Below, one piece after another: positions 4,084-56,950 of a stretch of 64,000 nt of DNA. This DNA comes from Alloascoidea hylecoeti (Eukaryota), in assembly GCA_001600815.1 (NCBI GenBank), contig BCKZ01000002.1, positions 1,682,294 through 1,746,293 of the forward strand. Direction: 5' to 3'. A program made the position numbers and the translations under genes. Position 1 is the stretch's first letter. Every line of letters begins with the position of its first letter. Under the pieces are notes generated by a model. That model did no database searches. It saw only the letters and a list, made by a program, of their open reading frames with translations, and was not told where the DNA came from.

Positions 4084-4555
4084 ATGATGAGCCTCAGTTC
4101 CTTATGTTTTGGTAGTGTAGTAAGTTCCGGGAAAGAAGTTCTACATACTGTATCATTCTTTAACTAATATATGGGTGAATAGACTTGCTTGATCGGTGTT
4201 TCTAACAGGTTTGAGTGAGATATAAGCCTAGAGTGTCTAATTTTAGAGGCCAATTGCTTAATCCTGTTACCTATTATCAAAAATCAATCATTAAAGTGTC
4301 GTTAAGACCCTCATAAAGTCTTGTTTGACTTGGGTATTATTATGATTACCTTCACAAATCAGCACCACTCTAGTATAAATTTAGAGCATGGAAGAAATTT
4401 TATTTAAAAGTGAAATAGCAATTATTGTATTCATCTTACTTTAATCTTATAAAAAAGGCATCATTAAAATTCAATGATCGAATCTAATAAAACATTTTTT
4501 ATTACGACTTTCACTATTATGGTCTTCAGTTTTAAGGTTTATAATAGTTTAAAAT

Positions 4556-5030
4556 ATGAACCCCATGAATCAAGGAAGAATTGCAACAATGTTTCCACTC
4601 CTGTTTAAAAGATCATGCTTTTTTCATTGACACGTTTATTTCCCAGATAAGTAAACAAAACAACTAAAGGAGTTACAACTTTTGATGAATCATCTCGAAA
4701 TTTTCAATCACAACCCATTACAAATCATAAACTTTCAATATTCTAAAGTTTCAATAGTCCCCTCTTATCAGAATTGGAAATACATCAAATTTATCAAGTA
4801 TTTCAGATTTAAATTCAAATATTAATCTCTTGTAATTGAAATAGAAGAAATGCAACTACAAATATTGATTCCCATAATTATACACAAATCATAAGTATTA
4901 TGATAATAATAGACATGGCAGGCATACAAAGATAATGTTAGATTCCCAACAATATTGGTATATTTACCACTAAAAAAAAGTTTCGGATATCATTGGTGGT
5001 GCTACTCTTAGAAGACGCGATGTAATAGTA
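4556..5030 (+). pseudogene. Degenerate partial copy of SDC1/Dpy-30 (left outer arm of palindrome 1)
   Basis: 4928-5015 aaagataatgttagattcccaacaatattgg...tttcggatatcattggtggtgctactcttagaaga aligns to SDC1 52481-52570 aaagataatgttaaatttccaacaaaattacc...cttcggatttaattggtggtgctaatgttagaaga (DNVRFPT..SDIIGGATLRR vs DNVKFPT..SDLIGGANVRR). It carries frameshifts and stops. Confidence 0.8.
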
Positions 5031-5372
5031 GAAAAAGTCATTAATGAACCATTGTTCTTGGCTTTTTTAAGGNTTTGNTACATCTAATTCTCGCCGTTAA
5101 TCCGTTTAAAGTATTGATGGTTTTGAATGCAAACATACGAGGCTATTACAAGTACACATACTCTATGAATATCATATTATTATTATTATGTTAATATTTT
5201 ATTAAATTGTTATACGTGTATAAAATCATATTAATTTACTATGTTAGACTTTTATAATACTTTGCTTTTCTTGTTGTAGTCCAAATACCCCTTATTATCA
5301 TGATACCAGATACTTTTGATTACTTTGAAATTGATTCCAAAATAGATTCCAATAACAAACTCATTTGTAAAA

Positions 5373-6296
5373 TCATTGAAAACACAGATTCTTATGTGAG
5401 GTTAATTTATTAGAGGAATCAAACCTTTTGTTACAATTATGACACCAATAGTTCAATTCTCCATTATGAATGCGTTTAAAATGATTATCCAAGGCTGCTG
5501 TTCCTTTGAATGCTTTGGGACAGTTTTTGCAAAGGTATTTCCCTTCTACTGTAATTGCAGCGTAATTTACGTCTGCTCTCTTTGAGTGCAACTCGACTGG
5601 AGCAATTTTCTTATGATTAAGCTTATGGTTATGATTCTGATTCTGATTCTGATTATGATTCTGATTCTGATTATGATTATGATTATGATTCTGATTCTGA
5701 TTCTGATTCTGATTCTGATTCTGATTCTGATTCTGATTCTGATTCTGATTCTGATCCTGATTCTGATCCTGATTCTGATTCTGACTGATTAAAAGACTAC
5801 CATCATCATAACTGTAATCAAATTGTATTAAAAATTCGTTTAAATCTGGCTTAAAACTGTTAAATTTAACTCGAGGAACTTCATACTGATTATTATTATG
5901 AATCTGATTATCATCATCATTATAATTAGTTAGCAAGTGTAGATCATTTGGGATTAACTGGTCCTGAAATATTTCTTCATCATTAATATTATGATTATAA
6001 TTTGATAAATATTCATTTGGATTAAATTGAAGCAAAAGATCTTCAGAATAAATATCATTATTAATATGATTTGAATTATCATTTATTAATGTATCTAATT
6101 CACGTTCAGGAACTGTAGGTGGTAAATTTCCCCAATTTTCATCAGTAGTTGTTTCCGATGCTGGTTGTGCTGGGACGTCACATATATTATACTCAGGGTT
6201 AAGAGACTCATACTTCAGTGAGAATACCTGCTCTTTGAATTCATGAAGCATATCTTCATTATTAGAAACTAGTAACAACCCGTTTGAAGAATTCAT
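5373..6296 (-). CDS. 307-aa zinc-finger protein: acidic N-terminus, QN/HN repeat, C2H2 + C2HC fingers; copy A
   Basis: YLCKNCPKAFKGTAALDNHFKRIH and YWCHNCNKRFDSSNKLTSHKNLC; ATG in AAAA context; translation identical to 7357-8280. Confidence 0.88.
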   Translation of the reverse strand: MNSSNGLLLVSNNEDMLHEFKEQVFSLKYESLNPEYNICDVPAQPASETTTDENWGNLPPTVPERELDTLINDNSNHINNDIYSEDLLLQFNPNEYLSNYNHNINDEEIFQDQLIPNDLHLLTNYNDDDNQIHNNNQYEVPRVKFNSFKPDLNEFLIQFDYSYDDGSLLISQNQNQDQNQDQNQNQNQNQNQNQNQNQNQNQNHNHNHNQNQNHNQNQNQNHNHKLNHKKIAPVELHSKRADVNYAAITVEGKYLCKNCPKAFKGTAALDNHFKRIHNGELNYWCHNCNKRFDSSNKLTSHKNLCFQ

Positions 6297-7356
6297 TTTT
6301 ATAAGTTATGTAGTATGTGATAACCAAATTATAAAGAAATGATTATGGTGGATTGTAAAAAAAAGAGAAAAAAGTAAGAGTGTGTTAAAATAGTTGTTAA
6401 GTGAAAAAATACTCAACTTTCCTTATTCTTTCCATTTTATTCCAATGAAGAGGACTGTAGTGTTTCTTTTCGGTATCATGCAAGTATTCGATCTTTGAAA
6501 AGGATCAAGGTTTAAGCATGTTACAAATCTAGTAATAACAATCCCCCACATAGTCATAGCCTCCGTTTATAGCATATCAGAAAGAAAAAATGATTTTTTA
6601 TTGTTATGAAATTCTCTAAAGATATTAATATATTAGACATTGGAACTGTTAAAATTGTATAAAATTGTAATAGTGGATGTTCTTAGAATGATCTTTACAT
6701 TCAATATATTATAAGATATATAGATAGATTATAGGATACTAACCACTTTACACGGTGAATGTTCGGTCACTTCAGGGTCTGGATGGAAAAGTAAATAATA
6801 GACTAAAACCCTACTAAGTCTTGGAAGTAAGTATAAGGAAGCCTTGTGTGTAATTCTTATGGTATGGGTTGCAATTTGGACAGGTGGCTTTACTTCACCG
6901 TGTAAAGTGGTTAGTATCCTATAATCTATCTATATATCTTATAATATATTGAATGTAAAGATCATTCTAAGAACATCCACTATTACAATTTTATACAATT
7001 TTAACAGTTCCAATGTCTAATATATTAATATCTTTAGAGAATTTCATAACAATAAAAAATCATTTTTTCTTTCTGATATGCTATAAACGGAGGCTATGAC
7101 TATGTGGGGGATTGTTATTACTAGATTTGTAACATGCTTAAACCTTGATCCTTTTCAAAGATCGAATACTTGCATGATACCGAAAAGAAACACTACAGTC
7201 CTCTTCATTGGAATAAAATGGAAAGAATAAGGAAAGTTGAGTATTTTTTCACTTAACAACTATTTTAACACACTCTTACTTTTTTCTCTTTTTTTTACAA
7301 TCCACCATAATCATTTCTTTATAATTTGGTTATCACATACTACATAACTTATAAAA

Positions 7357-8280
7357 ATGAATTCTTCAAACGGGTTGTTACTAGTTTCTAATAATGAAGA
7401 TATGCTTCATGAATTCAAAGAGCAGGTATTCTCACTGAAGTATGAGTCTCTTAACCCTGAGTATAATATATGTGACGTCCCAGCACAACCAGCATCGGAA
7501 ACAACTACTGATGAAAATTGGGGAAATTTACCACCTACAGTTCCTGAACGTGAATTAGATACATTAATAAATGATAATTCAAATCATATTAATAATGATA
7601 TTTATTCTGAAGATCTTTTGCTTCAATTTAATCCAAATGAATATTTATCAAATTATAATCATAATATTAATGATGAAGAAATATTTCAGGACCAGTTAAT
7701 CCCAAATGATCTACACTTGCTAACTAATTATAATGATGATGATAATCAGATTCATAATAATAATCAGTATGAAGTTCCTCGAGTTAAATTTAACAGTTTT
7801 AAGCCAGATTTAAACGAATTTTTAATACAATTTGATTACAGTTATGATGATGGTAGTCTTTTAATCAGTCAGAATCAGAATCAGGATCAGAATCAGGATC
7901 AGAATCAGAATCAGAATCAGAATCAGAATCAGAATCAGAATCAGAATCAGAATCAGAATCAGAATCATAATCATAATCATAATCAGAATCAGAATCATAA
8001 TCAGAATCAGAATCAGAATCATAACCATAAGCTTAATCATAAGAAAATTGCTCCAGTCGAGTTGCACTCAAAGAGAGCAGACGTAAATTACGCTGCAATT
8101 ACAGTAGAAGGGAAATACCTTTGCAAAAACTGTCCCAAAGCATTCAAAGGAACAGCAGCCTTGGATAATCATTTTAAACGCATTCATAATGGAGAATTGA
8201 ACTATTGGTGTCATAATTGTAACAAAAGGTTTGATTCCTCTAATAAATTAACCTCACATAAGAATCTGTGTTTTCAATGA
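7357..8280 (+). CDS. 307-aa zinc-finger protein, copy B (head-to-head with copy A)
   Basis: Identical translation to 5373-6296; lies in the right palindrome arm. Confidence 0.88.
   Translation: MNSSNGLLLVSNNEDMLHEFKEQVFSLKYESLNPEYNICDVPAQPASETTTDENWGNLPPTVPERELDTLINDNSNHINNDIYSEDLLLQFNPNEYLSNYNHNINDEEIFQDQLIPNDLHLLTNYNDDDNQIHNNNQYEVPRVKFNSFKPDLNEFLIQFDYSYDDGSLLISQNQNQDQNQDQNQNQNQNQNQNQNQNQNQNQNHNHNHNQNQNHNQNQNQNHNHKLNHKKIAPVELHSKRADVNYAAITVEGKYLCKNCPKAFKGTAALDNHFKRIHNGELNYWCHNCNKRFDSSNKLTSHKNLCFQ
7870..8028 (+). repeat. (CAGAAT)n/(CATAAT)n coding hexamer microsatellite giving poly-QN/HN; mirror copy at about 5625-5783
   Basis: Directly visible tandem array with the same interruptions in both arms. 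Confidence 0.95.
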
Positions 8281-8622
8281 TTTTACAAATGAGTTTGTTA
8301 TTGGAATCTATTTTGGAATCAATTTCAAAGTAATCAAAAGTATCTGGTATCATGATAATAAGGGGTATTTGGACTACAACAAGAAAAGCAAAGTATTATA
8401 AAAGTCTAACATAGTAAATTAATATGATTTTATACACGTATAACAATTTAATAAAATATTAACATAATAATAATAATATGATATTCATAGAGTATGTGTA
8501 CTTGTAATAGCCTCGTATGTTTGCATTCAAAACCATCAATACTTTAAACGGATTAACGGCGAGAATTAGATGTANCAAANCCTTAAAAAAGCCAAGAACA
8601 ATGGTTCATTAATGACTTTTTC

Positions 8623-9143
8623 TACTATTACATCGCGTCTTCTAAGAGTAGCACCACCAATGATATCCGAAACTTTTTTTTAGTGGTAAATATACCAATA
8701 TTTTTGGGAATCTAACATTATCTTTTTCATGGGCTAGTATGATTATTATGATTATTATGATGATTTGGTGTACAATTATGGAAATTTATATTTGAGGTTG
8801 AATTTTTTGTATTTGAAATAGAAGAGTTATTTGAAGTTGGATTTGAATTGAAATTAGATTTAAATATGATACATTTGATAGCTTCGATATATTTTTCCAT
8901 GATGATATTTGATTTGATGAAAGTATTGAAACTTTATAATATAAAATAGGTTGTTTTAATTGTAAATTTGGATTTGAATCATCAGGAGTTGTACCCCCTT
9001 TTATTGTTTTGTGTATATTTGGTATTAAATAATCATTCGACTGTGCAATAAACTTGTAAATGAATTCTGTCATATGTATTCATCAGAATTGGAATTGTTG
9101 GTGAAGTTCCTTTTTGATTCCCTTCTCGATTCTTGTGATTCAT
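8623..9143 (-). pseudogene. Degenerate partial copy of SDC1/Dpy-30 (right outer arm of palindrome 1)
   Basis: ORF 8786-9073 NLQLKQPILYYKVSILSSNQISSWKNISKLSNVSYLN matches SDC1 exon 2 NLQSQQPILYSQVSIPSSNQIASVKNTSIFSNVSNLN; frameshifted on both sides. Confidence 0.85.
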
Positions 9144-9486
9144 ATTTTAAACGATTAAATGATATCGAGAGGAATAATCAAGAAAACACATAATTATAAG
9201 TAGCTTACTAATTACCACTACAATAAATAATACAAAAACCAAGGTTATAATAAATATCTAATTCCCCTATATAATTTAATTGTTCTGTTACAGCTAATGT
9301 GTTTTACAGTATCAACTTATATACTCTAGTTATTAAAGATAAAGCATGTTCCAAACCTTTAACATATTCTCATAATGTAAAAATAAAACCAACCATAAAA
9401 CCAACCATAAAACCATAAAACCATAAAACCATAAATTCATAAATCTGTGAGTGAGATTAAAACATAATAGATATAAAATCTATAGC

Positions 9487-10452
9487 TTACAGTTGTATCA
9501 CACCACTAGCATAACTAACACTATTATCCCAAATGTTTTTAGCTTTGCTTGATTGTGCATAACCCAACCATTCAATATTCCCTTTCTTATCAGGAATAAT
9601 ACCTTCATTTTTCATAGTTTCAAATAGTGCAAGGAGAATTGATAATGGTTTCCGACCACAAATTGTAACATCTGTATCATCAACATAATCATTGAATTTA
9701 TCAAATGAACCAGTAGATAAGATATCCATTGCTTTTTTATCCATATATTCAATTGATTTGTATATTGGGATATCAATCTTGCTATTTTTACCTAATGTAG
9801 ATACACTACTAACGCTCTTGTCTTTTGTATAATTGGTATAATTGAAATTACCACCCCAATGAATGAAATCAGTAGATATAACAAAGGCAGTAGTTGGATC
9901 TTTAACATAAGGAGCCAATAATGAAGCTAATTTACGTTCATAAGAATGTGAAGTATGACCTACCATAATAGGAACAATTTTCGGGAAGTCCGCAACTTGA
10001 GATTCATCATTTCCAGATGATTTTAAATGATTTTCAAAAGCTTTGTATAAAAAAGGTAAATGCATTTCGAAACTATGTTCGTCTTCTTCAACACCAAGTG
10101 ACATTTTTTTTATACCTTTCTCTTCTAATTCATTAACAAGATCGGTATCAACCTGTAATTGGCCAAAGGGTGTATCATACGCAGAAACACCACTTATCAA
10201 AGATCCGCGAAAGTAAACATGATGTGATGGACCTAACATTATTATTCTTTTAACATTTTCCGGATCCCAAGTAGTATATGTTTGTGCTAACACTTGTCCA
10301 CAAAACCGGTACCCAGCATGTGGGCCGATAAGGATTCTTGTTCCTGGCAACGGAGTACACGCTTTTGAGAAATAGGAGTCGATCTGAGTTTTGAGGAGTA
10401 TAGGATTATCGGAATACCACGATCCGGCATGAGTTGCAGCACGAAGTACCAT
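9487..10452 (-). CDS. MHO1: MEMO1 family protein
   Basis: RAATHAGSWY, PHAGY, LGPSHH, EHSFEMHLP, STDFIHWG, TICGRKP and SVSYAS motifs. Confidence 0.95.
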   Translation of the reverse strand: MVLRAATHAGSWYSDNPILLKTQIDSYFSKACTPLPGTRILIGPHAGYRFCGQVLAQTYTTWDPENVKRIIMLGPSHHVYFRGSLISGVSAYDTPFGQLQVDTDLVNELEEKGIKKMSLGVEEDEHSFEMHLPFLYKAFENHLKSSGNDESQVADFPKIVPIMVGHTSHSYERKLASLLAPYVKDPTTAFVISTDFIHWGGNFNYTNYTKDKSVSSVSTLGKNSKIDIPIYKSIEYMDKKAMDILSTGSFDKFNDYVDDTDVTICGRKPLSILLALFETMKNEGIIPDKKGNIEWLGYAQSSKAKNIWDNSVSYASGVIQL

Positions 10453-36060: not shown

Positions 36061-36537
36061 TCTAGAATAAAAACAATTAATGTTAAAAAGAAAAACAAGA
36101 AATCAAATGCATTTTAAATTTCATAATAAAATGAAAGTTATAAAAACAAAATGGTTGAAAAGAAAATGCAAATGTAATACTGGAATGATATAAATATAAC
36201 CCAAGTAACCGAATTTTAAGGGGTAAAATAAATTGTAATTAAGGGGGTGTTTGGTAAAAACGCTCACGTTCACCTTCACCTAAAGTTAACGATAACGATA
36301 ACGTTAACAATTGTAAATTTGTTATTGTTTAATTTGATTGCAATTGAAAAGTAATTGATTGAATGATATAAGTTTGATATGTTATTATTGTAGTGGTAGT
36401 TAATGTGTAGTAAAAAGTCATAAAAAATCATCATGAAAATGCTAAGCTTATATTTATAAATATAAAGTGTTTTTTTAAAAAAAAAGGAATCCCAAAAAGA
36501 TAATGAAAAAAGAAAAGATAAGGATGATGATGATGAA

Positions 36538-36713
36538 TTAATAACCTTTAGCCGTAAGAGTTTGTCTTCTTTCTAAATCATATCTATAACCACCAACATC
36601 ATTCATTGAATCTAAATCTTTCCTTAAACCAATATCAGTATATGAAGATAATTGAAATCTATAACCATTTCTTGAATTTGAACTATTTACATCTCCATTT
36701 CCATTTCCATTTC

Positions 36714-36756
<43 letters not shown>

Positions 36757-38127: not shown

Positions 38128-38468
38128 TTTGGTGCTGTTGTGTTGACTAATAAATATAGAGAAGGTAAAAGGAAAAGGAAAACGAAAAAAAGAAATTTAA
38201 GTGGCTTCAAACGAAAATTAAACGAAAATTAAACAAAAATTAAACAAAAACCCCCTAATTGTGGAATTATAATATCCTCCGGCTCCGTTTATGCATGCGG
38301 TCACCTTTCGGTCACCTTTTTCCGCTTTGGTGTTCCGAGGTCTGGATCCGTCGATGCAAATGCACTCCATTACCGCTTTCGTCACAACACATCACTGAAT
38401 GATCTACTTTTTCGGATGATTCCATTCAATTTTAAAACATTTTAAACAAGCTCCCTAAATACTCTAAA

Positions 38469-43000: not shown

Positions 43001-43141
43001 TCCAATGTCTCACCTTAGATGATACTTTTTATATAAGCAAGAAATAAATTCGTTAAATTTTAAAAGATGTTTTAAAGTTATATACTCGTGGTTGCTTGAT
43101 ACTCTCGCATGTTATTACACAACTTACCATACAGTCTGAAT

Positions 43142-44905
43142 TCAAAGTAACCTCATTTCAAACGGCGAATTGCTTAAATTTTGGGTATCTGAATGTAAAA
43201 AAGATTTTAGATTCCTTAAATATTTTGTAGATTTTGTCTTGACTGGAATTTTAGGTGGTATTTCGGTTTCTTCGTACCCGCCTTTATGCATATGATCAAC
43301 AAGATGATAGAAATATCTATTTGTAACACATCTGACATTGAATTCATCATCTAGATACCAACTATCAATTTCTTTATCATCTGATGTTGGGATTGGTGCA
43401 TTATGACATTGAATGGTTTCATTTTGTAAATCAATTAAAATGTTAAATGAAAACTTTGAAACATAGTATTCATAAACAGCCATAATAAACCTTCCATTGT
43501 GTAATTCAGATACTTTGCACATTTTACACTCAACATTAGGTATTCCATAATCTGAGAACTTAACGAGTTGTATCCAGCTATTATTACCTTGAAAATGGGG
43601 CTTAAAGTTTTTTTGATTATCAACTTTGTAANTTAAATATTTGGATTTTATAGATGGGAAACGGGACACTATATCCACAATATTTTGGATCCATATTCCA
43701 TTAACAGCAAATAGAAAGATATGTGATTCATTAACAGCGATTTCAGCACCATTATATTCACAATCAGAGGATGTTAAAATTGGTTGCAATTTTAGAGATC
43801 CTAATTTAGTTCCATCAGATTTATTCAATACAACAAGTTGTATGTTATACGATATAAAAATAAAGCTATTATTGATTGCAGCAGAAATTTTAGTTTTCTT
43901 TCGTACTTGATCGAATTCCCAGCTCCATTTAGATTTGAAAAATTTATCAAATTTATAACAAGTTAGGCAAATATTTGAAATTACATAACAATAAGCTTCA
44001 TCAATTATAACTGGGAATCTGAATTTCAAATACCTTTCTCGCTGAAACCCATAATATTGATAGTACATGCGTGTAATGTCTGCATAAGCCATATTTTGTG
44101 CTTCCCTAGTTTGTATCTTTGTTGCACCTTTAACATTAAACTTCTTCCAGATCCTACGAACAGCGTAACTAATAGACCAAAGATCATCATATTCATAATA
44201 AGAACCAACGTGTATTCTGACCTTGCCATCTGAAAAATGTTTAAAAGATTCTCTATTCAATGCCAATACTATCTCATTTCTCAATGGATTTTCTATACCT
44301 AATGTTGATTGATCTAATATATAATAATTAAGAAAATAATGACATTGAGTATAATCCAAATTTTCTTCATCATAGACACTTCTGTGTAGAGTTATAAAAG
44401 ATTTAGGTTTGAAATTAAAAATTAAAGAAAACTTTGAACTCAAAGAAAAACAAGAATTTGGAATTTTGAATTGTTTCCTATTTGTATCCTTATTATAAAT
44501 CAATTCTGGTTCATTAACTATATTAGAATCAATGACGGGATTAATTGAAAATGTGAAAGAACCCTTAATCAATTTTCGTTCAATGATTCTTGCAACTTGG
44601 ACCTTATCTTGATAATATTTTAAGCTATCCGAATGATCAATTGAAGATTGCCCAAAAGGATAGGAAGCTGAGTCAAAAGATGAGTTAAATGTTAAATAGA
44701 GAGTTTTACAAGTCCTTGATAATATTGAATATTGGTGAAGTTCATAATTACGACCATAAACACAACCATTAATACCAACGATTATTAGTAAAATTTCAAG
44801 TGGGAGTGATGTTAAAGATTTCCCTTCTATGATACATGGTAATTCAGTTTGAAGACTACTACCGAAGTTGCTAGAGTTTTCATTACTATTATCAATATTT
44901 GACAT
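43142..44905 (-). CDS. Lineage-specific F-box protein
   Basis: SLTSLPLEILLIIV...LSRTCKTLY is F-box-like near the N-terminus. First ATG at 44905; one N at 43632. Confidence 0.7.
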   Translation of the reverse strand: MSNIDNSNENSSNFGSSLQTELPCIIEGKSLTSLPLEILLIIVGINGCVYGRNYELHQYSILSRTCKTLYLTFNSSFDSASYPFGQSSIDHSDSLKYYQDKVQVARIIERKLIKGSFTFSINPVIDSNIVNEPELIYNKDTNRKQFKIPNSCFSLSSKFSLIFNFKPKSFITLHRSVYDEENLDYTQCHYFLNYYILDQSTLGIENPLRNEIVLALNRESFKHFSDGKVRIHVGSYYEYDDLWSISYAVRRIWKKFNVKGATKIQTREAQNMAYADITRMYYQYYGFQRERYLKFRFPVIIDEAYCYVISNICLTCYKFDKFFKSKWSWEFDQVRKKTKISAAINNSFIFISYNIQLVVLNKSDGTKLGSLKLQPILTSSDCEYNGAEIAVNESHIFLFAVNGIWIQNIVDIVSRFPSIKSKYLXYKVDNQKNFKPHFQGNNSWIQLVKFSDYGIPNVECKMCKVSELHNGRFIMAVYEYYVSKFSFNILIDLQNETIQCHNAPIPTSDDKEIDSWYLDDEFNVRCVTNRYFYHLVDHMHKGGYEETEIPPKIPVKTKSTKYLRNLKSFLHSDTQNLSNSPFEMRLL

Positions 44906-46112
44906 TTTGGATGGCAATTGATATCTGGATTAGTTATAGTCAAAAAACAAAATATTGAATAAGGTCACCCCACACCTCATTGCATAATCTGTAATATTCT
45001 TTCAAATAAAACAGCTTCAAATTTAATTGGTTACAACCGGGTCGAGATATTCCTACGCTTTTCTTCGGGCATAACTCCAAAAAAAGTTGCAAGATCAAGA
45101 TCATAACATAACCAGCTACTGATGTTCTTAAAAACATTGCATCAGGTCACATAAATTCTAGTGATTATTATTCTATATGAAACTGCATCTTAAGTTTAGC
45201 ATCTAGTATTGGCGCCCTAAACGCCATAATTACAAAGGGCTGCTACTCTATGAAGCATTTAGTATTATGAACCCCAACCACTATATAGTATAGAGAAACC
45301 TACAAACAACTAGAGCTCTTTATGTTATAAGCATTTTAAAGTTCAAAGGGCCGAGCCCTGACTGTTGTCAAGCATATAATATGAATTCTCCGGATCCTCT
45401 AACATAGCTAACATTCGTTACTGGATAAAACACAAATTCAAAACTTATTAGATTAGTCCAGTTTATCTTTAGATTATTCTATTCTGTTCTTTTGGTTCTT
45501 ACTATTCATAAATGGACTTTTGATCTCTAGCATATTCAATATTCAAAACATTTTCAGAAGAATTAATTATAAAGTTCTCAAGGTGAATCAAAAGAAAAGT
45601 GTAAGTTTAATCTTGACCCAGCCTGTAACTTTCTCATTTGGTGAAACATCATGTAATATTGTTCGAAATTCAAAATTATCTTTTTTTATCAGAAGTATGG
45701 TTATATTAGTAGTAGACTATAGTAGTATTAATATAGTTTTATTTTAGAACTCTTGATACTAGCATTGACGTTATTCGTTTTTTGTTATTACAGCATTTCA
45801 CTCTTAACATAAATATTATTTTAAAGTATTAATCTTTAAGAGTTTAATTCAAAAAAGTAAAATAAGGGTAACTAGAATTCAGCAGGTATAGCTTCATTTT
45901 GACAGACTATTAGAAAACAAAGTTCAAATTGACATCTTTAATAATCTGAAAGGGATTTTCGTTTTCAATCGGTAATATGATCGCGGTGTGTGGGTTTTAT
46001 TATTCAAATGTGCTGTATGAAGGAAAATATGTTGTTCCTGTGTTAATGTGAATTTATAGTCGTCGTGCATAGATAATCTCAGATCAAACCATAATCATCA
46101 TTCTTTTTTTCC

Positions 46113-47605
46113 GATTACAGTTAATTCAGATATCAATTTCCATAATTATGAACTTCACCAATATTCAATATTATCAAGGACTTGTAAAACTCTCTATTTA
46201 ACATTTAACTCATCTTTTGACTCAGCTTCCTATCCTTTTGGGCAATCTTCAATTGATCATTCGGATAGCTTAAAATATTATCAAGATAAGGTCCAAGTTG
46301 CAAGAATCATTGAACGAAAATTGATTAAGGGTTCTTTCACATTTTCAATTAATCCCGTCATTGATTCTAATATAGTTAATGAACCAGAATTGATTTATAA
46401 TAAGGATACAAATAGGAAACAATTCAAAATTCCAAATTCTTGTTTTTCTTTGAGTTCAAAGTTTTCTTTAATTTTTAATTTCAAACCTAAATCTTTTATA
46501 ACTCTACACAGAAGTGTCTATGATGAAGAAAATTTGGATTATACTCAATGTCATTATTTTCTTAATTATTATATATTAGATCAATCAACATTAGGTATAG
46601 AAAATTCGTTGGGAAATGAGATAGTATTGTAATTGAATAGGAATTGGTGTCCTAAACCTTCAGATGGTATGGGAATAAGACACGCTAGAATCTATGATGA
46701 TTATGACGAATATTATGATGAATTGTAGATTAGTGATACTGCTCGTAAGATTTTGAATATGTTTATTGTTGCAATAAGGATCCCAGCCAAAGAAGCACAA
46801 AATATCTTTTATGTAGATCTTACACAGGTTCAATATTCTGGGGTCTCTCTGTTACAACAACTGAAAGTCGTCTTCTTAACAATAACAGATGATTATTGCT
46901 ATTTAATTTCAGATACCTGCATAACTTATTGTTATAGATTTGATAATTCTTGAAGATAAATGGACTTGGAATTTCGATTTTGTTAGATATCAACCAATTT
47001 CTGTTGCAATTAAAACTAACTTTATTTTTATAACATATGATATTCAACTTATTGTATTGAATAAATTTGTTGGAACTAAATTAGGATCTCTAAAATTGCA
47101 ATCAATTTTAACATCCTCTGATTGTGAATATAATGGTGCTGAAATCGCTGTTAATGAATCACATATCTTTCTATTTGCTGTTAATGGAATATGGATCCAA
47201 AATATTGTGGATATAGTGTCCCGTTTCCCATCTATAAAATCCAAATATTTAANTTACAAAGTTGATAATCAAAAAAACTTTAAGCCCCATTTTCAAGGTA
47301 ATAATAGCTGGATACAACTCGTTAAGTTCTCAGATTATGGAATACCTAATGTTGAGTGTAAAATGTGCAAAGTATCTGAATTACACAATGGAAGGTTTAT
47401 TATGGCTGTTTATGAATACTATGTTTCAAAGTTTTCATTTAACATTTTAATTGATTTACAAGATGAAACCATTCATAATGCACCAATCCCAACATCAGAT
47501 GATAGAAAAACTGATAGTTGGTATCTAGATGATGAATTCAATGTCAGATGTGTCACAAATAGATATTTCTATCATCTTGTTGATCATATGCATAAAGGCG
47601 GGTAA
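46113..47605 (+). pseudogene. Inverted pseudogene copy of the 43142-44905 F-box gene
   Basis: 46143-46605 mirrors 44750-44288 and about 47045-47604 mirrors 43840-43275, with a diverged middle. About 160 bp including the ATG and F-box start is deleted; stop at 46630-46632, further stops and a frameshift, truncated 3' end. Confidence 0.92.
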
Positions 47606-48724
47606 ACCATTATTTAAAATTTAACAAATATATTGCTTAGCTATGTGAGAGGTACGCATCTTAAATGAAACATAGGGCTAGGAGGATCTGGAAAAAAGAT
47701 TGTACAACAATTTGAAGCCGTTCAGCAGAGGTGATTTTCTGAATTCACGGTTGTTAGCGCAGTCACGGTACTGATTGCTAGGATGCATATATCAGATGTC
47801 AGTTCTAGATTTAAATTTCAATCGATAATATTTGATTTGGCAGTAAAATAGAGGTTTTATTTCATAAAATCTGACATTATGGCGTTTGGAAGGCGCCTCA
47901 CTGTTTTTATTTCCCACTTAGTTTTATAAAGAGAAGTATATACCGTATAAGAGACTCACTCGTTCGTATGGCACAAGCAACACAAGCGATGTTGTAAGCT
48001 AATTAGAGACATAGGAGCACAAGAAAGAATAAATTGAGGCTTTAAAGGTCTCTACAAGATCAGAGGAATTAAATTAACAGATAAACATCTACATTTCCTG
48101 TTAAAGTATGTAAAATCGTTGCTTTAAACACAAGAAAAGTATCTCCTAATAATATCCATTAATATTTGACAATCAATTATAATAAGTCAACGTTATGGAG
48201 ATCTTAGATGATTTGGAATTCGGAAAACCCGGATATTCCCTTGTGTATTAATCTATTAGACCAAATAATTCTTGGATAGAAACAAGGGGAAATTTGGGAG
48301 AAAACCAGTACTCTCAAAAGCGGTTTTTACAGATCCCCTAGGATAAGCGCTTAGTCTTATATAATTTTTTTTAACCGTTCATGCACGATAGGATTGCTGG
48401 TATCAAATCAAATTGAAATCGGATGAGTTTAAAAATCGATATATGCCTATTTTGATAAAAAGATATACTTCATCCATTATTTACATTCATATTACAAAAA
48501 TTATCCAGAATAGCCACTATAACTCCTCAGATAACAAATTATGATGCCTAGAACATTGTTTAAGAGCGCTTATTGATCAAATTATTATTAAAGACCTTGT
48601 TGAACCAGTTACCCGAAAAGTCGCACGTTCTCTTGTCCACTTTTCAAGACTCAAAATTGCACATTCAACGTTGATGCGCATCCACATTACAATGAACATT
48701 GTATTAAATAAAATAAAAAAAACA

Positions 48725-48734
48725 GTCACGTGAC
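48725..48734. promoter_or_regulatory. GTCACGTGAC palindrome (Cbf1/CDEI-type consensus) just downstream of tRNA-His
   Basis: Perfect 10-bp palindrome matching RTCACRTG on both strands. Confidence 0.35.
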
Positions 48735-48763
48735 AGCAAGAGTTGCTTTAAAAAAAGAAAAAA

Positions 48764-48835
48764 TGCCGTTGCCCAGAATCGAACTGAGGTTTCATCGGCC
48801 ACAACGATGTGTACTGACCACTATACTACAACGGC
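48764..48835 (-). tRNA. tRNA-His(GTG)
   Basis: GCCGTTGTAGTATAGTGGTCAGTACACATCGTTGTGGCCGATGAAACCTCAGTTCGATTCTGGGCAACGGCA folds as a cloverleaf with GTG anticodon and A/B boxes, followed by a T-run terminator. Confidence 0.97.
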
Positions 48836-49453
48836 CAATTTACGGTTTAGAAAAAACGTCGATTGGAATCCGATCCCGGACCGAAGTAAAAACCTTAAAG
48901 TGAAAAATTGTTAAGATCGGGTTGCATGTTCTATACTAAAGAATCGGGTTAAATTATTGTAAAAGAAGTCATACAGATTGTTAAAATCAGACCATATTAT
49001 GTATTTATGCATATGTAGCAACAGTAAATTTATCATATGATTTAAACCAGTATATAAAACCACTATTCCTTATAATTAATATTACACTATTTAGACTTTT
49101 TTATTTTAAATTTTGAATTGCTTTTAAATATGAATTGTTAATAATGATATATAGAAGATGATAGAACAGACAATTGTATGAAGAAATGAATAGTGCTGAA
49201 AATTAAGATCAAGACAAATGAAGTATTTAATGAATGAGATGATTAGTCATGAATGAAAGAGTAAATAATAATATAATAATATCAATCATAATTGTATGTG
49301 TATATTTTTAAATCCAATTGTAATTGTAAAAGTAATCAATCAATCATACTGATTTCTCTCTATATATTTTTTAAATACTTCCTTTTTATAGTTTGTTGTT
49401 GGTGAAAAATTCGTAAGATTATTATGAAACCATTAATTATACAACTAATAGTG

Positions 49454-50864
49454 TTAAAAATTAACACTAGCATCGAAATATAATTCCGGATCTAATAAAC
49501 TAATATCAGCACTTGTTGCTTCACCATCTAATATTAATTCAGCCATAACTTTACCAGTACCAGGAGCATTATTTATTCCCCAACAACTATGGCCACTTGC
49601 AAGATATAAATTTTCAACATTTGTTTTACCAATCAATGGACCAGAAGCTGAAGGAACATCTAATACTGGTAAATAACAAGCTTGTCTTTTTAAAACTGTA
49701 CCAGATTCTAATTCTTTTGAAATCTTTTTTGCATAATTAAATAATTCATCACATTTTTCATGGATTACTTCAACATCATCAGTTGTTTCAGGGACACCAA
49801 CCAATGTATCACCTTCACCACAAACATAAACTTCATCAGGTCTTGAATAAATTTCTGGAGAAACATATTGACCTCTACTTATTTTTAATTCGGTGAAAAT
49901 AGCGTAAGGACTAACATTATGAGGAGTTGAAATTGTAATTGAATGAGCTCTTAATCCACTTATTGGACAATCAGGTAAGATTTTAGAAGTCCATGGACCA
50001 ACAGTCATTATAAATTTTGAAGCATTTAAAGTTTTAAAATTAAAAGATGAAGAATTTAAAACTTCCTTTGAAGTTGATGGTATATAAGTAACTGATTCTG
50101 CTGAACCATTATCATTATTATAATTAATTGTTAAAACTTTACCAATTATTAAATCTACAGAACCAGTTTCCATTGCTTTTTTCAATAAAAAATTCGTAAA
50201 TTTATAAGGATGAACTTGAGCAGTACTATCAGTACCTCCTAAACTTGAACAACCTTCAATGATATCATTTTTAATCCAATTTAAATCAGGAGGTAATTGT
50301 GGACCTTTTGGTATTCTTGTTGAACCAGTTGATTTTTTAGTTTTTCCCTTTTTATTATTTATATTATTGTTGTTGTTATTCATTGATTCAACATGATGTT
50401 GGAAACTGGAATCATAAGAATCACTACTATAATCAGTATCTAGTTCTTCATGTGTATAATGATGTAAATGATGACGATGATTATGGTGATTAGAATCAAT
50501 ATTGGCTTCAATAGAAACAGTTGTTAATCTTCTATAGCCCCATTCTTTTTCGCCATTGTATTCATCCGCTAGATCTTGATGTAATTGAAAAGACATTGGG
50601 ACTAATTGTTGAGGGAAAGCCCACAAAGCTAACAAACCACCAGCTTTACCACTGGCACCGCCAGCGACTCTTTTTGATTCCAGGATCGTTATATGATGAG
50701 TACTTGGGGAGAATTTGGGATGACGGGTTAGATAATAAGCGGTAGAAACGCCGATGATTCCAGCACCTTTAAAATATGCAATAGTTAGTATTATAAATAT
50801 ATATTTGTACTTAAAATGGTATAAACTTACCAACTATTACTATATGCTGTTTCTCCGAGGGCAT
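49454..50864 (-). CDS. TDA3: FAD-dependent oxidoreductase Tda3/Btn3, 2 exons (intron 50830-50767)
   Basis: Spliced HIVIVG|AGIIGVSTAYYL, GGASGKAGGLLA, TAQVHPYKFT, ASGHSCWGINNAPGTGKVMAE. Confidence 0.9.
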
Positions 50865-51130
50865 ATTTATAAAGGATTACACTGATATATTAATATTATG
50901 AGATGCCGCAACGAATAAACCAAATAAATAAATAAAACTGCGTTGAGCACAAATCGAAAGATTTAACTTGGCAGGTGCAAAAGAAAAAAAGATGAATTTG
51001 AATTTTTTGAATATTAGAAAAGTAAAAAAGCAAAATAAATCAATAAATCAGAATAGAATAATCCCGGACCCGGGCGTCAGCTGTTCTGCAGGCTATCACC
51101 GGAACAGGAAGGCCCGGTGGTTAGTGTCGG

Positions 51131-51799
51131 TCAGACCAGCAGGAGAAGCACCAAAAGCACACAGAGCGCAATTATCAGTAGCGCAATGCAACAACTTCCT
51201 AAAGTGTCCTGGTTCTTGCGCAAGACAGTCTCCACCCGTTTGACCCCACGGCCCAACTTGTCCTGCACTCGGTCCATATCTCTTCCCAAGTCGTCAACTA
51301 AAACAGCTTGCTCCTCTAATTCGTCGTTCATTTCGAATGCTTGCTGGCGCAGATTCTGCACGGTTGAATAGACCTGGTCCAAATGTCCGTCCTGCTCCTG
51401 GAGCATCTGCTGCTGTGCAAATTCATTGTAATTGTCGTAATCCGGTTCATCCGGCCCTCCATCAGTGCTGATCCGGTTCCTAACATCCGTACTGTTCGTA
51501 CTATTACTATTATTAAACAGAGAAACCGTTTTATTCATCTCGTTCTCCAAATCCCCTACTATTCGTTTCCGGCTCAGTATCTCATTTGCATCCAATCCGA
51601 ACTCCTCGGGTCGAACTCCGGAGATTTTGATCGAGGATTTCATATCGCCAATGGTTTCCTCCAGTTCCTCTAATATATTGTTGAAATCTTGTCTTCGTTC
51701 TTCCGGTGTTTGTTGTGTTGGTTGAAACGGGGTCAACATGTTTCGTAGGTTTCCAAGACGTTCTTTGGCATCCTGATATACTTGTGGGAATGGATCCAT
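51131..51799 (-). CDS. TLG1: Qc-SNARE, syntaxin-6/Tlg1 family
   Basis: MDPFPQVYQDA start, PEEFGL, EQDGHLDQV..NLRQQAFEMNDELEEQ SNARE motif, CCIALLIIAL tail anchor. Confidence 0.9.
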   Translation of the reverse strand: MDPFPQVYQDAKERLGNLRNMLTPFQPTQQTPEERRQDFNNILEELEETIGDMKSSIKISGVRPEEFGLDANEILSRKRIVGDLENEMNKTVSLFNNSNSTNSTDVRNRISTDGGPDEPDYDNYNEFAQQQMLQEQDGHLDQVYSTVQNLRQQAFEMNDELEEQAVLVDDLGRDMDRVQDKLGRGVKRVETVLRKNQDTLGSCCIALLIIALCVLLVLLLLV

Positions 51800-51872
51800 T
51801 GTGTGCTTTCTATTTCGTTTTCTATCTATGTCTGTTTGTGTGGTTCTGCTTGTTGGGTGTAATTATAAATGG

Positions 51873-51880
51873 CCGGGTAA
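51873..51880. promoter_or_regulatory. CCGGGTAA (Reb1-type site) in the 143-bp TLG1/SDC1 divergent promoter
   Basis: Exact match to the TTACCCGG consensus, midway between the two ATGs; adjacent (GACATT)n at 51898-51920. Confidence 0.45.
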
Positions 51881-51942
51881 CTTGTATTTTTCACGTTGAC
51901 ATTGACATTGACATTGACATCGACACGATTCTCCAAAAAAAA

Positions 51943-52814
51943 ATGTCAAGTATTCGTGATTTAATAAACAATCCTGAGGTATTTATTAATAAATTTTCAT
52001 CTTTTTATAGTAGTATATAACTAATTTGCCTTGTTTTGATATTAGGATTCTATTCCAACTAATACTGATATTCATAATGATTCCTCCATTCAAATCTCAA
52101 ATATATCATTACATCCTGAATCACAGGATATAAATGTTCAGTCTAATAATACTATCAATTCGGAACCTCAATCTCAATTACAACCTAATGACTTTCAAAA
52201 TCAAAATATAATAACACCAACACCTGTTACACCTGCTGATGATCTAGGTATAAATTTACAATCACAACAACCTATTTTATATTCTCAAGTTTCAATACCT
52301 TCATCGAATCAGATAGCATCTGTAAAAAACACGTCAATATTCTCAAATGTATCAAACTTAAATTCAAATCCAACTTCAAATCCAACTTCAAATAATTCTT
52401 CAAGAAATTCAACACCAAATATAGAATCCCATAATCATACACCAAATCCTCATCAACATCATAATCATGGTAATCATACAAAAGATAATGTTAAATTTCC
52501 AACAAAATTACCTGATGTCCCACCAAATGAAAAAGCTTCGGATTTAATTGGTGGTGCTAATGTTAGAAGATGGTTAAATGAAAAAGTAACTCCTTCGTTA
52601 TTAGAAGGAATGAGAATGATTGCAAAAGAAAAGTATGTTCATTTATTTATTTATTTATTTATTTAAATCATAAGTATTAACCTTTTGTTTTAGACCTGAC
52701 AAACCTTTAGAAATGCTTGGGAAATTCTTTATGGAAAAAAGTAAACTTCTAGAAAGTGAGAATGAAAATGACATACAAATGAATGAAAATGAAAATGAAG
52801 AGGAAAATAATTAA
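51943..52814 (+). CDS. SDC1: COMPASS subunit Sdc1/Dpy-30, 3 exons (51943-51978, 52046-52632, 52694-52814); not called by the ORF track
   Basis: Spliced frame is open; IGGANVRRWLNEKVTPSLLEGMRMIAKEK|PDKPLEMLGKFFME is the Dpy-30 motif; GTATTT..TAG and GTATGT..TAG introns. Confidence 0.93.
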
Positions 52815-54102
52815 AAATAAAATTATTAGAAAGTAATTTGACTCTGACTCAAATTTAAAATCATAATTTATTAATATAGCATACCTTTACATCTTTCTTA
52901 ATACTGATTCAAATCGATAGCATTCAAATTCAAAATATTTGTAATTGATTGTCATTGTACAGCTAGAGGTATAATAACCATCAATTCCTAATTTAAGATG
53001 TAAATAAAAAAAACTCACTAAATCAATTGTAGGAATTATTAATGATTTTGCTTTGGATTTAACATTTAATTCATTTGTATCAATTTTAAATATCTTGAAT
53101 TTTCATTTTCTGTATAATTTGCATAATTACTGTATTATGACGAAAATATCCCAAGGACTTGAAGGGAAGTAGAATGCTTTATGTAGTTTTCTAAGGACAT
53201 TTATCCCCAGCCTGAATTCGTCATATTGTAGAAACATTTTCGTCGTTTTCGTATGTGTATTTGAAATTTCATAATTACGTCACAATACTCGACATTCACT
53301 GAAGCCAAATAACGAAAACTAGGTCACTCCGTAAACTAAATATGAGTTTCAATGTACCAAAAATACACAAAAGTGATAAAACTGTCTTTCCAATGTGGCA
53401 AATTCAATCTCGTGAAACTGTAATGCTTTAATATAAAAGTTTATGCTTTGAAATTGGTAATATTGTATAAAATTATAGTATTGAATATTATGAGAGTGAA
53501 CTTATGTGTATATTACGATTCATAGTTAAATATAAGATACTACCGTATACGTAATTATAGGTTATCCAAACATTCAAAATGGGAATGACTTAAAGTACAT
53601 AAGTTAGTACTCTCATAAATCTAATTAAAGGCCTCTTACAAAGGTTGTATGTGTGGAAACGTGGGATGGCTCCTTTTTTCTACAATTAGGATCTCCAATC
53701 ACCATATACAATGAATTACGTCCTTCTTTCCAAATTTTAATCCATACCATAAGACTCACAGACCAATAATTCCCTATACTATAAATAGTTTTCGATTCAA
53801 AGGCTTAGTGTTACGGTTGTGGACCATACAATTTTCCAGATTCTGATGATCCCGACCTAACATTCGCCACTATATAAAACACCATCCAGATCCCAAATGC
53901 TATTAGATCACTCCAATATATATTTATGCAATACCATTCTATTCATTTGGTTCTTCTCACTTAGGTAAGACCAATTACCCGACGGAAATATTACATATTC
54001 ATGTATTTACAGAAGGAATCTTAGGTGGTATTTGATATTCGAATGCTGAAGTTTGAAGCCATATATATACGCACAGATCAAATATTTCAATCCACTTAGT
54101 TG

Positions 54103-54210
54103 GTTGCAATTACTTTCTAGAAGTGGAATTGTCTGAAATACTGCTTAAGGGTCTACTTTAAATAGCTATATTACTTCAATTATAATATATTTAATCGTAT
54201 AATGGAGGTA
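54103..54210 (+). pseudogene. Probable relic of the same zinc-finger family
   Basis: Translates VAITF*KWNCLKYCLRVYFK* then YNIFNR..NG, versus AAITVEGKYLCKNCPKAFKG..DNHFKRIHNG and FLITSEEKFNCERCERQFKG. Confidence 0.5.
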
Positions 54211-54489
54211 TACATTCACATTAGACACAATATCTACGTACAGAATATGAAGGAAATATTTACAACTTTTCAATTAATATATATATAGAACCATGATCTA
54301 TCATCATTATAGCTTCACCTATCTACAATTTTATATCATATCAATATCAATTTATAAGTGATAATAATAATATTCACAAATGCATATTCATACACTGTGT
54401 GAACTTATTAATCATGATTTGGAGAACAACTACATTTGCAATCGTAATTGTATTTTATTAATTTATTAAATATATATTAATATTGAAAT

Positions 54490-55044
54490 CTAATTATATA
54501 ATTTTAAACCACTCTTGCACGGCTGGTTATTGATACAATCCCGTTTATGTTTCGTTAACATGTGTGATGTCGCATATGTAAAACCACACCGTGAACAACT
54601 GTAAGGTAACAGTCCAAGATGTATACTNTGGAAGTGATTCCGTAATGATTTTTGGCCCTTGAATTGTCTCTCACATCTCTCACAATTAAATTTTTCTTCT
54701 GAAGTAATCAAAAAAGAATTATCTTTTGAAACCGGTTTGGGTCCAACTGGAGCAGTTTCATTATCACTATCAATATGAACTGGGGTCTGACTATTATTAT
54801 CTACATCCTCACTGTTGATATTGTGAATACTGTATGTTTCTTTAACTACAGTTCCTGGATCTTTTGGTTCCTCTAGTTCCTCTGGCTCATCTGTCGTTTC
54901 TGACTCTTCTAGATCGTCTAACTTCTCTGGCTCTTCTGGTGCTGGAAGATCACCTCTATAAGCAGCAAGGAATTCTTCTAAATGCTCTCTAGCGTAAATG
55001 CTTTGTTCGTATGGGAGTCCCCCAAGTGGTCTATTATCATTCAT
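54490..55044 (-). CDS. 184-aa zinc-finger protein (acidic N-terminus, C2H2 + C2HC), copy A
   Basis: FNCERCERQFKGQKSLRNHFxSIH and YSCSRCGFTYATSHMLTKHKRDC. Confidence 0.85.
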   Translation of the reverse strand: MNDNRPLGGLPYEQSIYAREHLEEFLAAYRGDLPAPEEPEKLDDLEESETTDEPEELEEPKDPGTVVKETYSIHNINSEDVDNNSQTPVHIDSDNETAPVGPKPVSKDNSFLITSEEKFNCERCERQFKGQKSLRNHFXSIHLGLLPYSCSRCGFTYATSHMLTKHKRDCINNQPCKSGLKLYN

Positions 55045-55482
55045 TTTATATAGTGTTGGTAATAAAATTAATTATAGTGAGCGATGAGGAAAAGAGAAAA
55101 AGAGCAGATGGCCCTTTAAGTCGGAAAACTTTCATGTCCCTTCCTTATTAGTCTGATGCTGATACTCCAAATTACTTATAACATCACCATTTNGGTAATT
55201 ACAGTGGAAAGAGCTAGTGTTTAATAAAGAAATAAAAACACACAAATATATGCATATGCATGTACACACTTACTAGATGTGGAAACTGCTTTTATTTCTT
55301 TATTAAACACTAGCTCTTTCCACTGTAATTACCNAAATGGTGATGTTATAAGTAATTTGGAGTATCAGCATCAGACTAATAAGGAAGGGACATGAAAGTT
55401 TTCCGACTTAAAGGGCCATCTGCTCTTTTTCTCTTTTCCTCATCGCTCACTATAATTAATTTTATTACCAACACTATATAAA

Positions 55483-56037
55483 ATGAATGATAATAGACCA
55501 CTTGGGGGACTCCCATACGAACAAAGCATTTACGCTAGAGAGCATTTAGAAGAATTCCTTGCTGCTTATAGAGGTGATCTTCCAGCACCAGAAGAGCCAG
55601 AGAAGTTAGACGATCTAGAAGAGTCAGAAACGACAGATGAGCCAGAGGAACTAGAGGAACCAAAAGATCCAGGAACTGTAGTTAAAGAAACATACAGTAT
55701 TCACAATATCAACAGTGAGGATGTAGATAATAATAGTCAGACCCCAGTTCATATTGATAGTGATAATGAAACTGCTCCAGTTGGACCCAAACCGGTTTCA
55801 AAAGATAATTCTTTTTTGATTACTTCAGAAGAAAAATTTAATTGTGAGAGATGTGAGAGACAATTCAAGGGCCAAAAATCATTACGGAATCACTTCCAAA
55901 GTATACATCTTGGACTGTTACCTTACAGTTGTTCACGGTGTGGTTTTACATATGCGACATCACACATGTTAACGAAACATAAACGGGATTGTATCAATAA
56001 CCAGCCGTGCAAGAGTGGTTTAAAATTATATAATTAG
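55483..56037 (+). CDS. 184-aa zinc-finger protein, copy B (head-to-head)
   Basis: Identical to copy A apart from the N-containing codon. Confidence 0.85.
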   Translation: MNDNRPLGGLPYEQSIYAREHLEEFLAAYRGDLPAPEEPEKLDDLEESETTDEPEELEEPKDPGTVVKETYSIHNINSEDVDNNSQTPVHIDSDNETAPVGPKPVSKDNSFLITSEEKFNCERCERQFKGQKSLRNHFQSIHLGLLPYSCSRCGFTYATSHMLTKHKRDCINNQPCKSGLKLYN

Positions 56038-56950
56038 ATTTCAATATTAATATATATTTAATAAATTAATAAAATACAAATACTAACATTTCTTTTATCC
56101 ATTATGCCATTAATTGGCGCTTGTTGGATACAACATCTTCCACCATAAATCTGGAACCCGAAGATTGAAAATGAATCTACAAGTACTAGTGAGGGTACTC
56201 AACCACAATGATCTCCTGCGAAAGAGGAATAATTCATCGCTGATGATGATATTGAAAAACAATTACAAAATTCATAAGTTGCATGCAGTTGTTTAACATG
56301 TAAAAGATTGTGATCATGATATTGATGGAAGTTTTACTCATAAATAACGGGAAATTTTGCTCAAAGAATAATTTCTGAAAGAATATAGACGTGTCAGAAA
56401 ATGGCAGATATTTAATTTGATTTGCTATGCTTAAATAAATCCATTTCTTTGATATGTTACTTAAAATATCTTCCATATTTATACGTTTATTTATGGCTTA
56501 CATAGTACAAGTTGGGAATCTTAAAATTGAAGCAGAAGATATCTAGAAATATTAGAAAAAATTAACATGTTGTAATAAATCATTTAATATATGGCAAATA
56601 ATTGTGCTATACCATTAGCAAGGACTATAATCTCATCCAATTGTTGAAAACGTAGTGTACCGGTACGCGTTGCTTCCTTTTTGCTGATTGAATATAAATG
56701 GTTGTAATTATGCAAAACTAAGATGGTACAACGGTGCTAGCAGCGAAAAAATATTGGCGGAGAAAGAGGGAGTATGGTGGAACAACATATGCTACATCTC
56801 GTCCTTAAAGCCTCTTATCAGATAAATAGATTAAGACAAATAGATAAACTTCCATTTACTAACCTTATCTCACTTTCTCATATTAATCTATCAACTCACA
56901 TATAAACTACACATAAGTAACTTACATTAAAAACTTTTGAGCATTAAAGA

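Follow-up and report, generated by a model that had tools for sequence, protein, structure and literature searches.

A 64,000-nucleotide (nt) stretch of the genome of the yeast Alloascoidea hylecoeti (assembly GCA_001600815.1, contig BCKZ01000002.1, positions 1,682,294 to 1,746,293), hereafter the window, carries two zinc-finger genes, each present as a head-to-head pair within a DNA palindrome. We name the palindromes P1 and P2 and their genes ZF1 and ZF2, respectively. A preliminary description of this DNA counted these two palindromes; both are present, but a third inverted duplication, P3, lies between them at 43275-47604. The three are probably adjacent head-to-head inverted duplications of single genes, set in a duplication-rich region, with cores that have been kept alike by conversion between the arms. 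Inverted repeats were located with a repeat finder and the arms were then compared column by column.

P1 consists of two near-perfect arms of 1832 nt, at 4928-6759 and 6894-8725, which the repeat finder scored as 100% complementary, placed around a unique spacer of 134 nt (6760-6893). Each arm holds an intronless open reading frame (ORF) that points outward and encodes ZF1, a protein of 307 amino acids with two C-terminal fingers; copy A is at 5373-6296 on the minus strand and copy B at 7357-8280 on the plus strand. The design first described for both palindromes, a short unique spacer and mirrored arms with outward-pointing intronless genes for proteins of 307 and 184 amino acids, is borne out by the repeat finder and the ORFs. 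The further claim that the copies within a palindrome are identical holds in that both ZF1 copies encode the same protein, but the DNA of the arms shows one mismatch in P1 and two in P2 plus several ambiguous bases (N). In P1 the mismatch is at 4950/8703 and N faces N at 5073/8580 and 5078/8575, giving an arm-to-arm difference of 0.05-0.16% when Ns are taken as possible differences. A hexanucleotide repeat of CAGAAT/CATAAT, approximately 170 nt long (5611-5784 and 7869-8043), codes for a tract of ZF1 rich in asparagine, glutamine and histidine. Tracts of this type mutate fast, and in the assembly this one is identical between the arms, which would argue for very recent homogenisation of P1 provided that short-read assembly resolved the tract.

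The extent of P1 was originally given as 4928-8725. That range stands as the perfect core, but homology between the two sides runs on to 4542-9157 at approximately 69% identity. The outer diverged extensions, 4542-4927 on the left (plus strand) and 8726-9157 on the right (minus strand), are pseudogene fragments of a Dpy-30/SDC1-like gene, the right one including a 95-amino-acid ORF at 8786-9073. Local alignment of 4542-4910 with 9157-8742, with indels and about 69% identity, scores 137, where 30 shuffles reach at most 40; blastn reports 68.7% over 284 nt for the outer flanks against each other and joins 4542-6759 with 9157-6894 as one match. The extensions are collinear inverted copies, beginning 16-17 nt from the arm ends. 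On the right, a tblastn search with the SDC1-like exon matches 8992-8858 (45 residues, 64% amino-acid identity, E 5e-9). On the left, homology to an intact SDC1-like copy 52 kb into the window covers 4659-5015 at the nucleotide level and 4911-5015 at the protein level, and the fragment spans the identity step at 4927/4928, where similarity between the arms changes from about 69% to about 100%.

A duplication of recent date should be bordered by unrelated sequence, and as the flanks of P1 are collinear this palindrome is unlikely to be recent. P1 also appears old because its outer part is approximately 69% identical while the 1.83-kb core is approximately 99.9% identical, and the cutting of one pseudogene in both arms by the identity step points to an old inverted duplication with a homogenised core. 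We propose that each palindrome would have started when a gene, together with its promoter, was duplicated in inverted tandem; the mechanism of this first step is one that we infer, the usual routes being template switching at a stalled replication fork or the repair of a break by fold-back. Arm-to-arm gene conversion within the chromosome would later have overwritten one arm by the other, repeatedly, leaving the gene-bearing core near-identical while sequence outside the conversion tract drifted. The whole of 4542-9157 would then once have been one inverted duplication, the inner 1.83 kb of which was later overwritten arm to arm. P3 would represent the same process half-way, one copy already being a pseudogene, and P2 a palindrome that is either young or fully homogenised.

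P3 is a head-to-head inverted duplication with a spacer of 1392 nt. Its left arm (43275-44750) is, according to the repeat finder and an identity profile, a mosaic. Scored per 100 columns, identity is 87-100% over 43276-43875, falls to 60-69% over 43876-44256 and returns to 95-100% over 44257-44756, the full series per 100 alignment columns being 96, 93, 100, 100, 100, 87; 69, 62, 69, 60; 95, 100, 100, 100, 96; and then background. The arm is contained in an intact ORF of 587 amino acids (43142-44905, minus strand). The right arm holds a truncated and frameshifted copy of the same gene (46114-47602, plus strand), to which tblastn aligns residues 43-320 at 73% (46114-46944) and residues 324-543 at 89% in another frame (46952-47602). 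Such an identity mosaic is what patchy conversion between old inverted paralogues classically leaves behind. In both P3 and P1 the sequence comparisons show a similarity of the arms well above what the age of the duplication would permit. The 587-residue protein matches no Pfam family; F-box clusters in the ESM Atlas score 0.90 for it, which we treat only as a lead. The idea that the three large ORFs close to the repeats share membership of an F-box family was rejected (BLASTP E 0.2 to 1). The lowest G+C content of the window, 25-29%, is found at 34000-44000, adjoining P3.

The arms of P2 are 797 nt in length, at 54444-55240 and 55287-56083, also scored as 100% complementary by the repeat finder, and they enclose a unique spacer of 46 nt (55241-55286). 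ZF2, of 184 amino acids, is again encoded by outward-pointing intronless ORFs, copy A at 54490-55044 on the minus strand, with one residue X that results from the N at 54628, and copy B at 55483-56037 on the plus strand. Column comparison reveals mismatches at 54447/56080 and 55238/55289, an N/N pair at 55193/55334, and the N at 54628 facing A at 55899, so that the arms differ by 0.25-0.5% with Ns again taken as possible differences. The leftover differences in both P1 and P2 are mostly close to the edges of the arms. Inspection by eye of the P1 and P2 arm comparison revealed nothing convincing by way of residual spacer symmetry or short priming repeats at the inner junctions, and neither spacer gives a match in Rfam.

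The window has ten ambiguous bases, all single (5073, 5078, 8575, 8580, 35597, 43632, 47253, 54628, 55193 and 55334), and eight of them make four mirrored pairs within P1, P2 and P3. Mirrored Ns suggest variants that the assembler could not place on one arm, that is, hidden arm-to-arm or allelic differences. This raises the question of whether the palindromes are an artefact of assembly or library preparation, either a fold-back chimera or a collapsed repeat mirrored by the assembler, the more so as perfect palindromes are poorly handled by short-read assembly. Public sequencing data address the question. Four runs contain 95-99% of the sampled words of 3800-9700. Two of them, X1 and X2, derive from one sample, which is a possible source of the assembly; X3 comes from the same organism but another sample and study, and X4 is a wood-decay metagenome, so that three samples and three studies are represented. 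The runs were available as short-read contigs with one depth figure per contig, a word depth that is not a copy number, and contigs were aligned over 42500-57000, a range that covers P2 and P3.

In all four runs the P2 arm is a single contig, 55290-56079 (extending to 56083 in X4), at approximately twice the depth of both flank contigs. The arm depth is 111 against flanks of 62.2 and 63.2 in X1, 46.6 against 21.4 and 20.9 in X2, 13.6 against 6.7 and 7.59 in X3, and 19.1 against 10.9 and 7.54 in X4. A check for half depth, or for one arm only, had been advised as a means to detect an artefact; instead the arm has double depth and both flank contigs are present in every run. In X1 to X3 the left flank contig stops at 54477 and the right one starts at 56050, each 30 nt past the arm-distinguishing bases 54447 and 56080, an overshoot expected with words of 31 letters. 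The X4 contigs break instead at 54473 and 56054, 30 nt past the true arm ends, and the arm contig has one other letter; the arms would therefore agree at 54447/56080 in X4 and differ there in X1 to X3. Base 55899 is G in X1 and X2 but A in the window, X3 and X4, a synonymous change (CAA versus CAG) that is consistent with the Ns hiding arm or allelic variants. For the bin 55084-55567, simple arithmetic resolves the depth in all four runs into the share of the arm contig and a single-depth piece of approximately 110 nt.

Since doubled arm depth and contig breaks at the arm edges recur in four of four runs, P2 is real DNA, common to three samples, and no assembly artefact. P3 is likewise real DNA in all four runs; its arms differ enough to be resolved directly, its spacer and diverged middle tract are separate single-depth contigs, and contig breaks coincide with the changes in identity. 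With two different flank junctions at P2, breaks that coincide with the bases that distinguish the arms, and a metagenome among the sources, an artefact is very improbable as the explanation of the inverted duplications. Two contig joints in X4, from 45573 to 51980 and from 47871 to 52808, have sides of 20-22 nt and were discounted as likely matches to repeats or to foreign sequence.

Several considerations weigh against a history of old duplication followed by conversion, or limit how far it extends. What speaks for P1 as real DNA is the word share of 95-99% in the four runs together with analogy, which suggest rather than establish it. All of this evidence consists of short-read contigs, in which no single molecule spans a palindrome; at P2 a spacer contig joining both inner arm ends is implied by the bin depth but is not among the listed contigs. 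The outer flanks of P1 are AT-rich, repetitive and of low complexity, so chance similarity is inflated, and the right flank resembles the copy at 52 kb (76% over 253 nt) more than it does the left flank (69%); the two flank fragments may stem from separate events or the history may be more complex. P2 has no diverged outer extension (alignment score 27 against a shuffle maximum of 32), and for this palindrome a recent duplication without conversion fits equally well. Finally, the difference between arms (0.05-0.5%) is about equal to that between the window and X4, which amounts to approximately 0.1-0.2% (17 substitutions and 4 indels in at most 14.5 kb), although few sites are involved. Arms no less different than strains lend no support to conversion that outpaces strain divergence, nor to very frequent active renewal.

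Some of these points favour an alternative in which the inverted duplications are recent and independent, each produced by one fold-back or template-switch event shortly before the strains diverged, with no conversion thereafter. The absence of an extension at P2, arm-to-arm differences that match those between strains, and the occurrence of P2 in each of the three samples, in keeping with an origin shortly before these separated, are what such a history predicts. It does not explain how the identity step of P1 falls inside a continuous pseudogene of both arms, with collinear outer parts beginning 16-17 nt from the step, and the mosaic of P3 cannot stem from a single event. We consider it unlikely as an account of all three. 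Conversion between the arms, as originally suggested, is thus retained for P1, on the step within the pseudogene, and for P3, on the mosaic, but P2 could equally be a recent duplication.

ZF1 and ZF2 share 28% identity over 156 amino acids (E 1e-15), rising to 44% over the 59-62 amino acids of the finger region. In both proteins the fingers are C-terminal, the first of the form C-x2-C-x12-H-x4-H and the second C-x2-C-x12-H-x3-C, i.e. C2H2 followed by C2HC. Against the Pfam zf-C2H2 family (PF00096) ZF2 scores E 6.4e-6 and 26.8 bits, with the cut-off at 25.2, and ZF1 lies slightly under the cut-off at 24 bits. A two-domain profile matches 167 solved C2H2 chains, including ZNF568, PRDM9 and CTCF. 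On the basis of this fold family the proteins presumably bind DNA and serve as transcription factors.

The sequence motif that was initially quoted in support of a relationship is real, with 31 of 94 columns invariant between ZF1 and ZF2, but most of it appears to be the generic Krueppel-type C2H2 consensus. The parts specific to the family are a P-V before the fingers, I-T-x-[EK]-x-K, F-K-G, N-H-F and the final H-K-x-x-C, and these are invariant in ZF1, ZF2 and one further protein, P0152. This protein of 196 amino acids is 72% identical to ZF1 in the domain and shares with it the MNSSN start and CFQ end. It was the only relative among four proteins found in a search with ZF1 that scored 8000; its cluster has one member, on a contig of 10,573 nt. 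The corresponding search with ZF2 returned only ZF2 itself from 48 candidates, a C-terminal profile run against longer proteins returned only P0152 from 146 candidates, and two scans of metagenome contigs gave 346 and 144 pattern matches, among which no relative was confirmed. HMMER with a profile of the two sequences matched 92,952 library proteins; the 150 matches listed are 607-5807 amino acids long with 8-55 matched stretches each. They are generic poly-zinc-finger proteins and uninformative on orthology, and the ESM Atlas likewise gave generic C2H2 clusters only. ZF1 and ZF2 are related, as had been proposed, and with P0152 they appear to form a small, lineage-restricted C2H2 family.

The preliminary description regarded the palindromic state as recurring with this family, and the idea has a functional version. 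A shared, mirrored control region might provide balanced double dosage or co-regulation of a fast-evolving family of transcription factors and so be selected, or the family might have a duplication route of its own. Both family members in the window are indeed palindromic, both ORFs of each pair are intact, and in P1 the gene-bearing core has been kept alike while the outer pseudogene part decayed. However, P3 matches P1 and P2 in design, with outward genes, a mirrored upstream region and a unique middle, yet carries a gene unrelated to zinc fingers, one copy of which is dead; the palindromic design is therefore not tied to the zinc-finger family. The conversion tract of P1 takes in non-coding DNA and pseudogene remains as well (4928-5372), which means that the identity can arise without selection on the gene, the family has three known members only, and there is no RNA run among the listed runs containing the stretch. 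Selection of this kind is improbable. With an unrelated gene in P3 and differing boundaries in P1 and P2, the palindromes would reflect the region or the genome rather than the zinc-finger family.

The boundaries have a second implication, since their difference makes it probable that P1 and P2 formed separately. The genes themselves may have a common origin, as an SDC1-like gene or fragments adjoin both zinc-finger loci and ZF1 and ZF2 may descend from one duplicated block. Long inverted arms around a short loop resemble a foldback element, and we considered mobile elements of the foldback type, or with long terminal inverted repeats, that carry a zinc-finger gene. This is scarcely credible. 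The arms of P1 and P2 have no DNA similarity outside the finger-coding part and hold an ordinary host pseudogene fragment, the sequence at the P2 edges has neither a target-site duplication nor a direct repeat, and in the window there is no transposase-like ORF, nor a transposase family in a Pfam scan.

The intact Dpy-30/SDC1-like gene, at 52046-52811 on the plus strand, belongs to the family from which the pseudogene fragments on either side of P1 derive. It has one intron, at about 52634-52692, with the 5' splice site GTATGT near 52634, followed by a branch-like TATTAAC and a 3' AG near 52692. Its Dpy-30 motif, half of which lies in the exon, scores 21.4 bits (E 2e-4), slightly below the cut-off of 22. 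The long exon lacks an ATG at its start, and the start codon may sit in a further upstream exon. A fourth SDC1-like fragment is at 59569-59744 (plus strand), with 72-79% identity to the left flank of P1, and a weak match (E 0.017) lies within the P3 spacer at 45615-45683 (minus strand). A further piece of duplication debris, to the left of P1, is a 75-nt stretch (4459-4532) with 81% identity to part of a 710-amino-acid ORF at 62 kb (62021-62095).

The window as a whole is AT-rich (26-41% G+C in 2-kb windows) and contains ordinary budding-yeast genes, encoding Memo, a zinc alcohol dehydrogenase, an SGT2-like TPR protein, Lgl/Sro7, a PKC1-type kinase, MIOS, an EPL1-PHD protein, a cyclin and a syntaxin-6-like SNARE. 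The cyclin ORF has 13 CTG codons, eight of them within the stretch aligned to human cyclin-Y, where they face leucine five times, isoleucine twice and glutamate once. Reassignment of CTG was ruled out on this basis; the codon appears to be read as leucine in the host and the standard translation of the zinc-finger genes therefore stands. An aldo/keto reductase at 29958-30996 (minus strand) appears as two adjacent ORFs of 202 and 151 amino acids, which points to a frameshift, an intron or a pseudogene. The sole RNA gene found in the window with Rfam is a tRNA-His(GTG) at 48764-48835 on the minus strand. In each of the four runs the contigs are interrupted or have loose ends at 48758/48835 and at 52782-52801, and depth rises nearby; this suggests dispersed repeats, namely the tRNA gene and an A-rich tract.

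How do the three inverted duplications compare with known systems? Arm-to-arm gene conversion in mammalian sex-chromosome palindromes was reportedly demonstrated by Rozen et al. in 2003. The same process is treated in PMC6790999 and PMC4233959. The mammalian palindromes likewise consist of inverted arms around a unique spacer, with genes inside the arms and identity kept by conversion. They differ in that the arms are one to three orders of magnitude longer and hold testis-expressed multi-copy genes on a non-recombining chromosome, whereas here single small genes in a compact yeast genome are involved.

In terms of scale the hsp16-1/hsp16-48 locus of Caenorhabditis elegans is nearly equal to P1 (Russnak and Candido 1985, via PMC3966223). 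Two modules of approximately 1.9 kb make a 3.8-kb inverted repeat with 100% identity around a 416-bp unique spacer, as compared with 3.8 kb in all and arms of 1.83 kb in P1. The flanks of the worm repeat are fully diverged, and gene conversion was favoured over recent duplication (PMC3966223). Organism and gene family are different and each worm module has two genes; in our yeast the spacers of P1 and P2 are shorter (134 and 46 nt) and P1 retains the diverged outer extension that dates its duplication.

Amongst yeasts, a survey of tandem gene arrays in nine species (Despons et al. 2010, PMC2822764) reports that 19.0% of 469 arrays consist of two oppositely oriented coding sequences and that approximately 10% combine a coding sequence with a relic. 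Tandem paralogues were less diverged than dispersed ones, for which gene conversion was offered as a cause. P1, P2 and P3 are all opposite-orientation arrays in that sense, being adjacent paralogous coding sequences on opposite strands with no gene between, and P3 belongs to the type with a relic. LYP1/ALP1 is an old inverted tandem duplication (PMC5499181). That survey was made at the protein level, and kb-scale near-perfect palindromes with spacers under 150 nt are not reported in the accessible part of it. Candida albicans has ORF-bearing inverted repeats of 1-3 kb, as a rule two-copy and 91-99.5% identical (Todd et al. 2019, PMC6591007), but at the breakpoints described they are approximately 3 kb to 1.6 Mb apart and not tens of bases, and that work examines them as places where copy-number change, loss of heterozygosity and inversion have their breakpoints. 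In the Saccharomyces cerevisiae reference, perfect inverted repeats with a spacer under 77 bp have arms of at most 30 bp, and the longest imperfect repeat is a Ty pair (PMC2908449). Engineered repeats of the kb scale seen in the window are strong recombination hot spots (Lobachev 1998, cited in PMC6591007).

The suggestion that this is an undescribed system is contradicted by the precedents in PMC2822764 and PMC3966223. In the literature consulted, most of it outside subscription journals, we found no description of such gene-bearing palindromes in budding yeasts, and kb-scale arms, approximately 99.9% identity and spacers of 46-134 nt are together a less usual combination for this group. What we see is best read as concerted evolution of adjacent inverted duplicates, a familiar process in an unusually tight form, with no new mechanism.

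The value of the window lies in its examples, natural and at the population level, of palindromes with kb arms and short spacers that persist in a budding yeast. One of them, P1, has an internal clock, its decayed outer extension indicating a core homogenised long after the duplication. A bolder idea, for which we see only a slim chance, is that the lineage tolerates and repeatedly makes kb-scale near-perfect palindromes with spacers below 150 nt. If so, the presence of three head-to-head duplications within 64 kb would be a sign of a duplication route specific to the lineage, or of hairpins and cruciforms being handled in an altered way, and conversion between arms would preserve young transcription-factor genes as matched pairs. 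Should the pattern extend genome-wide, the species would be a natural system for the formation, tolerance and upkeep of palindromes outside sex chromosomes.

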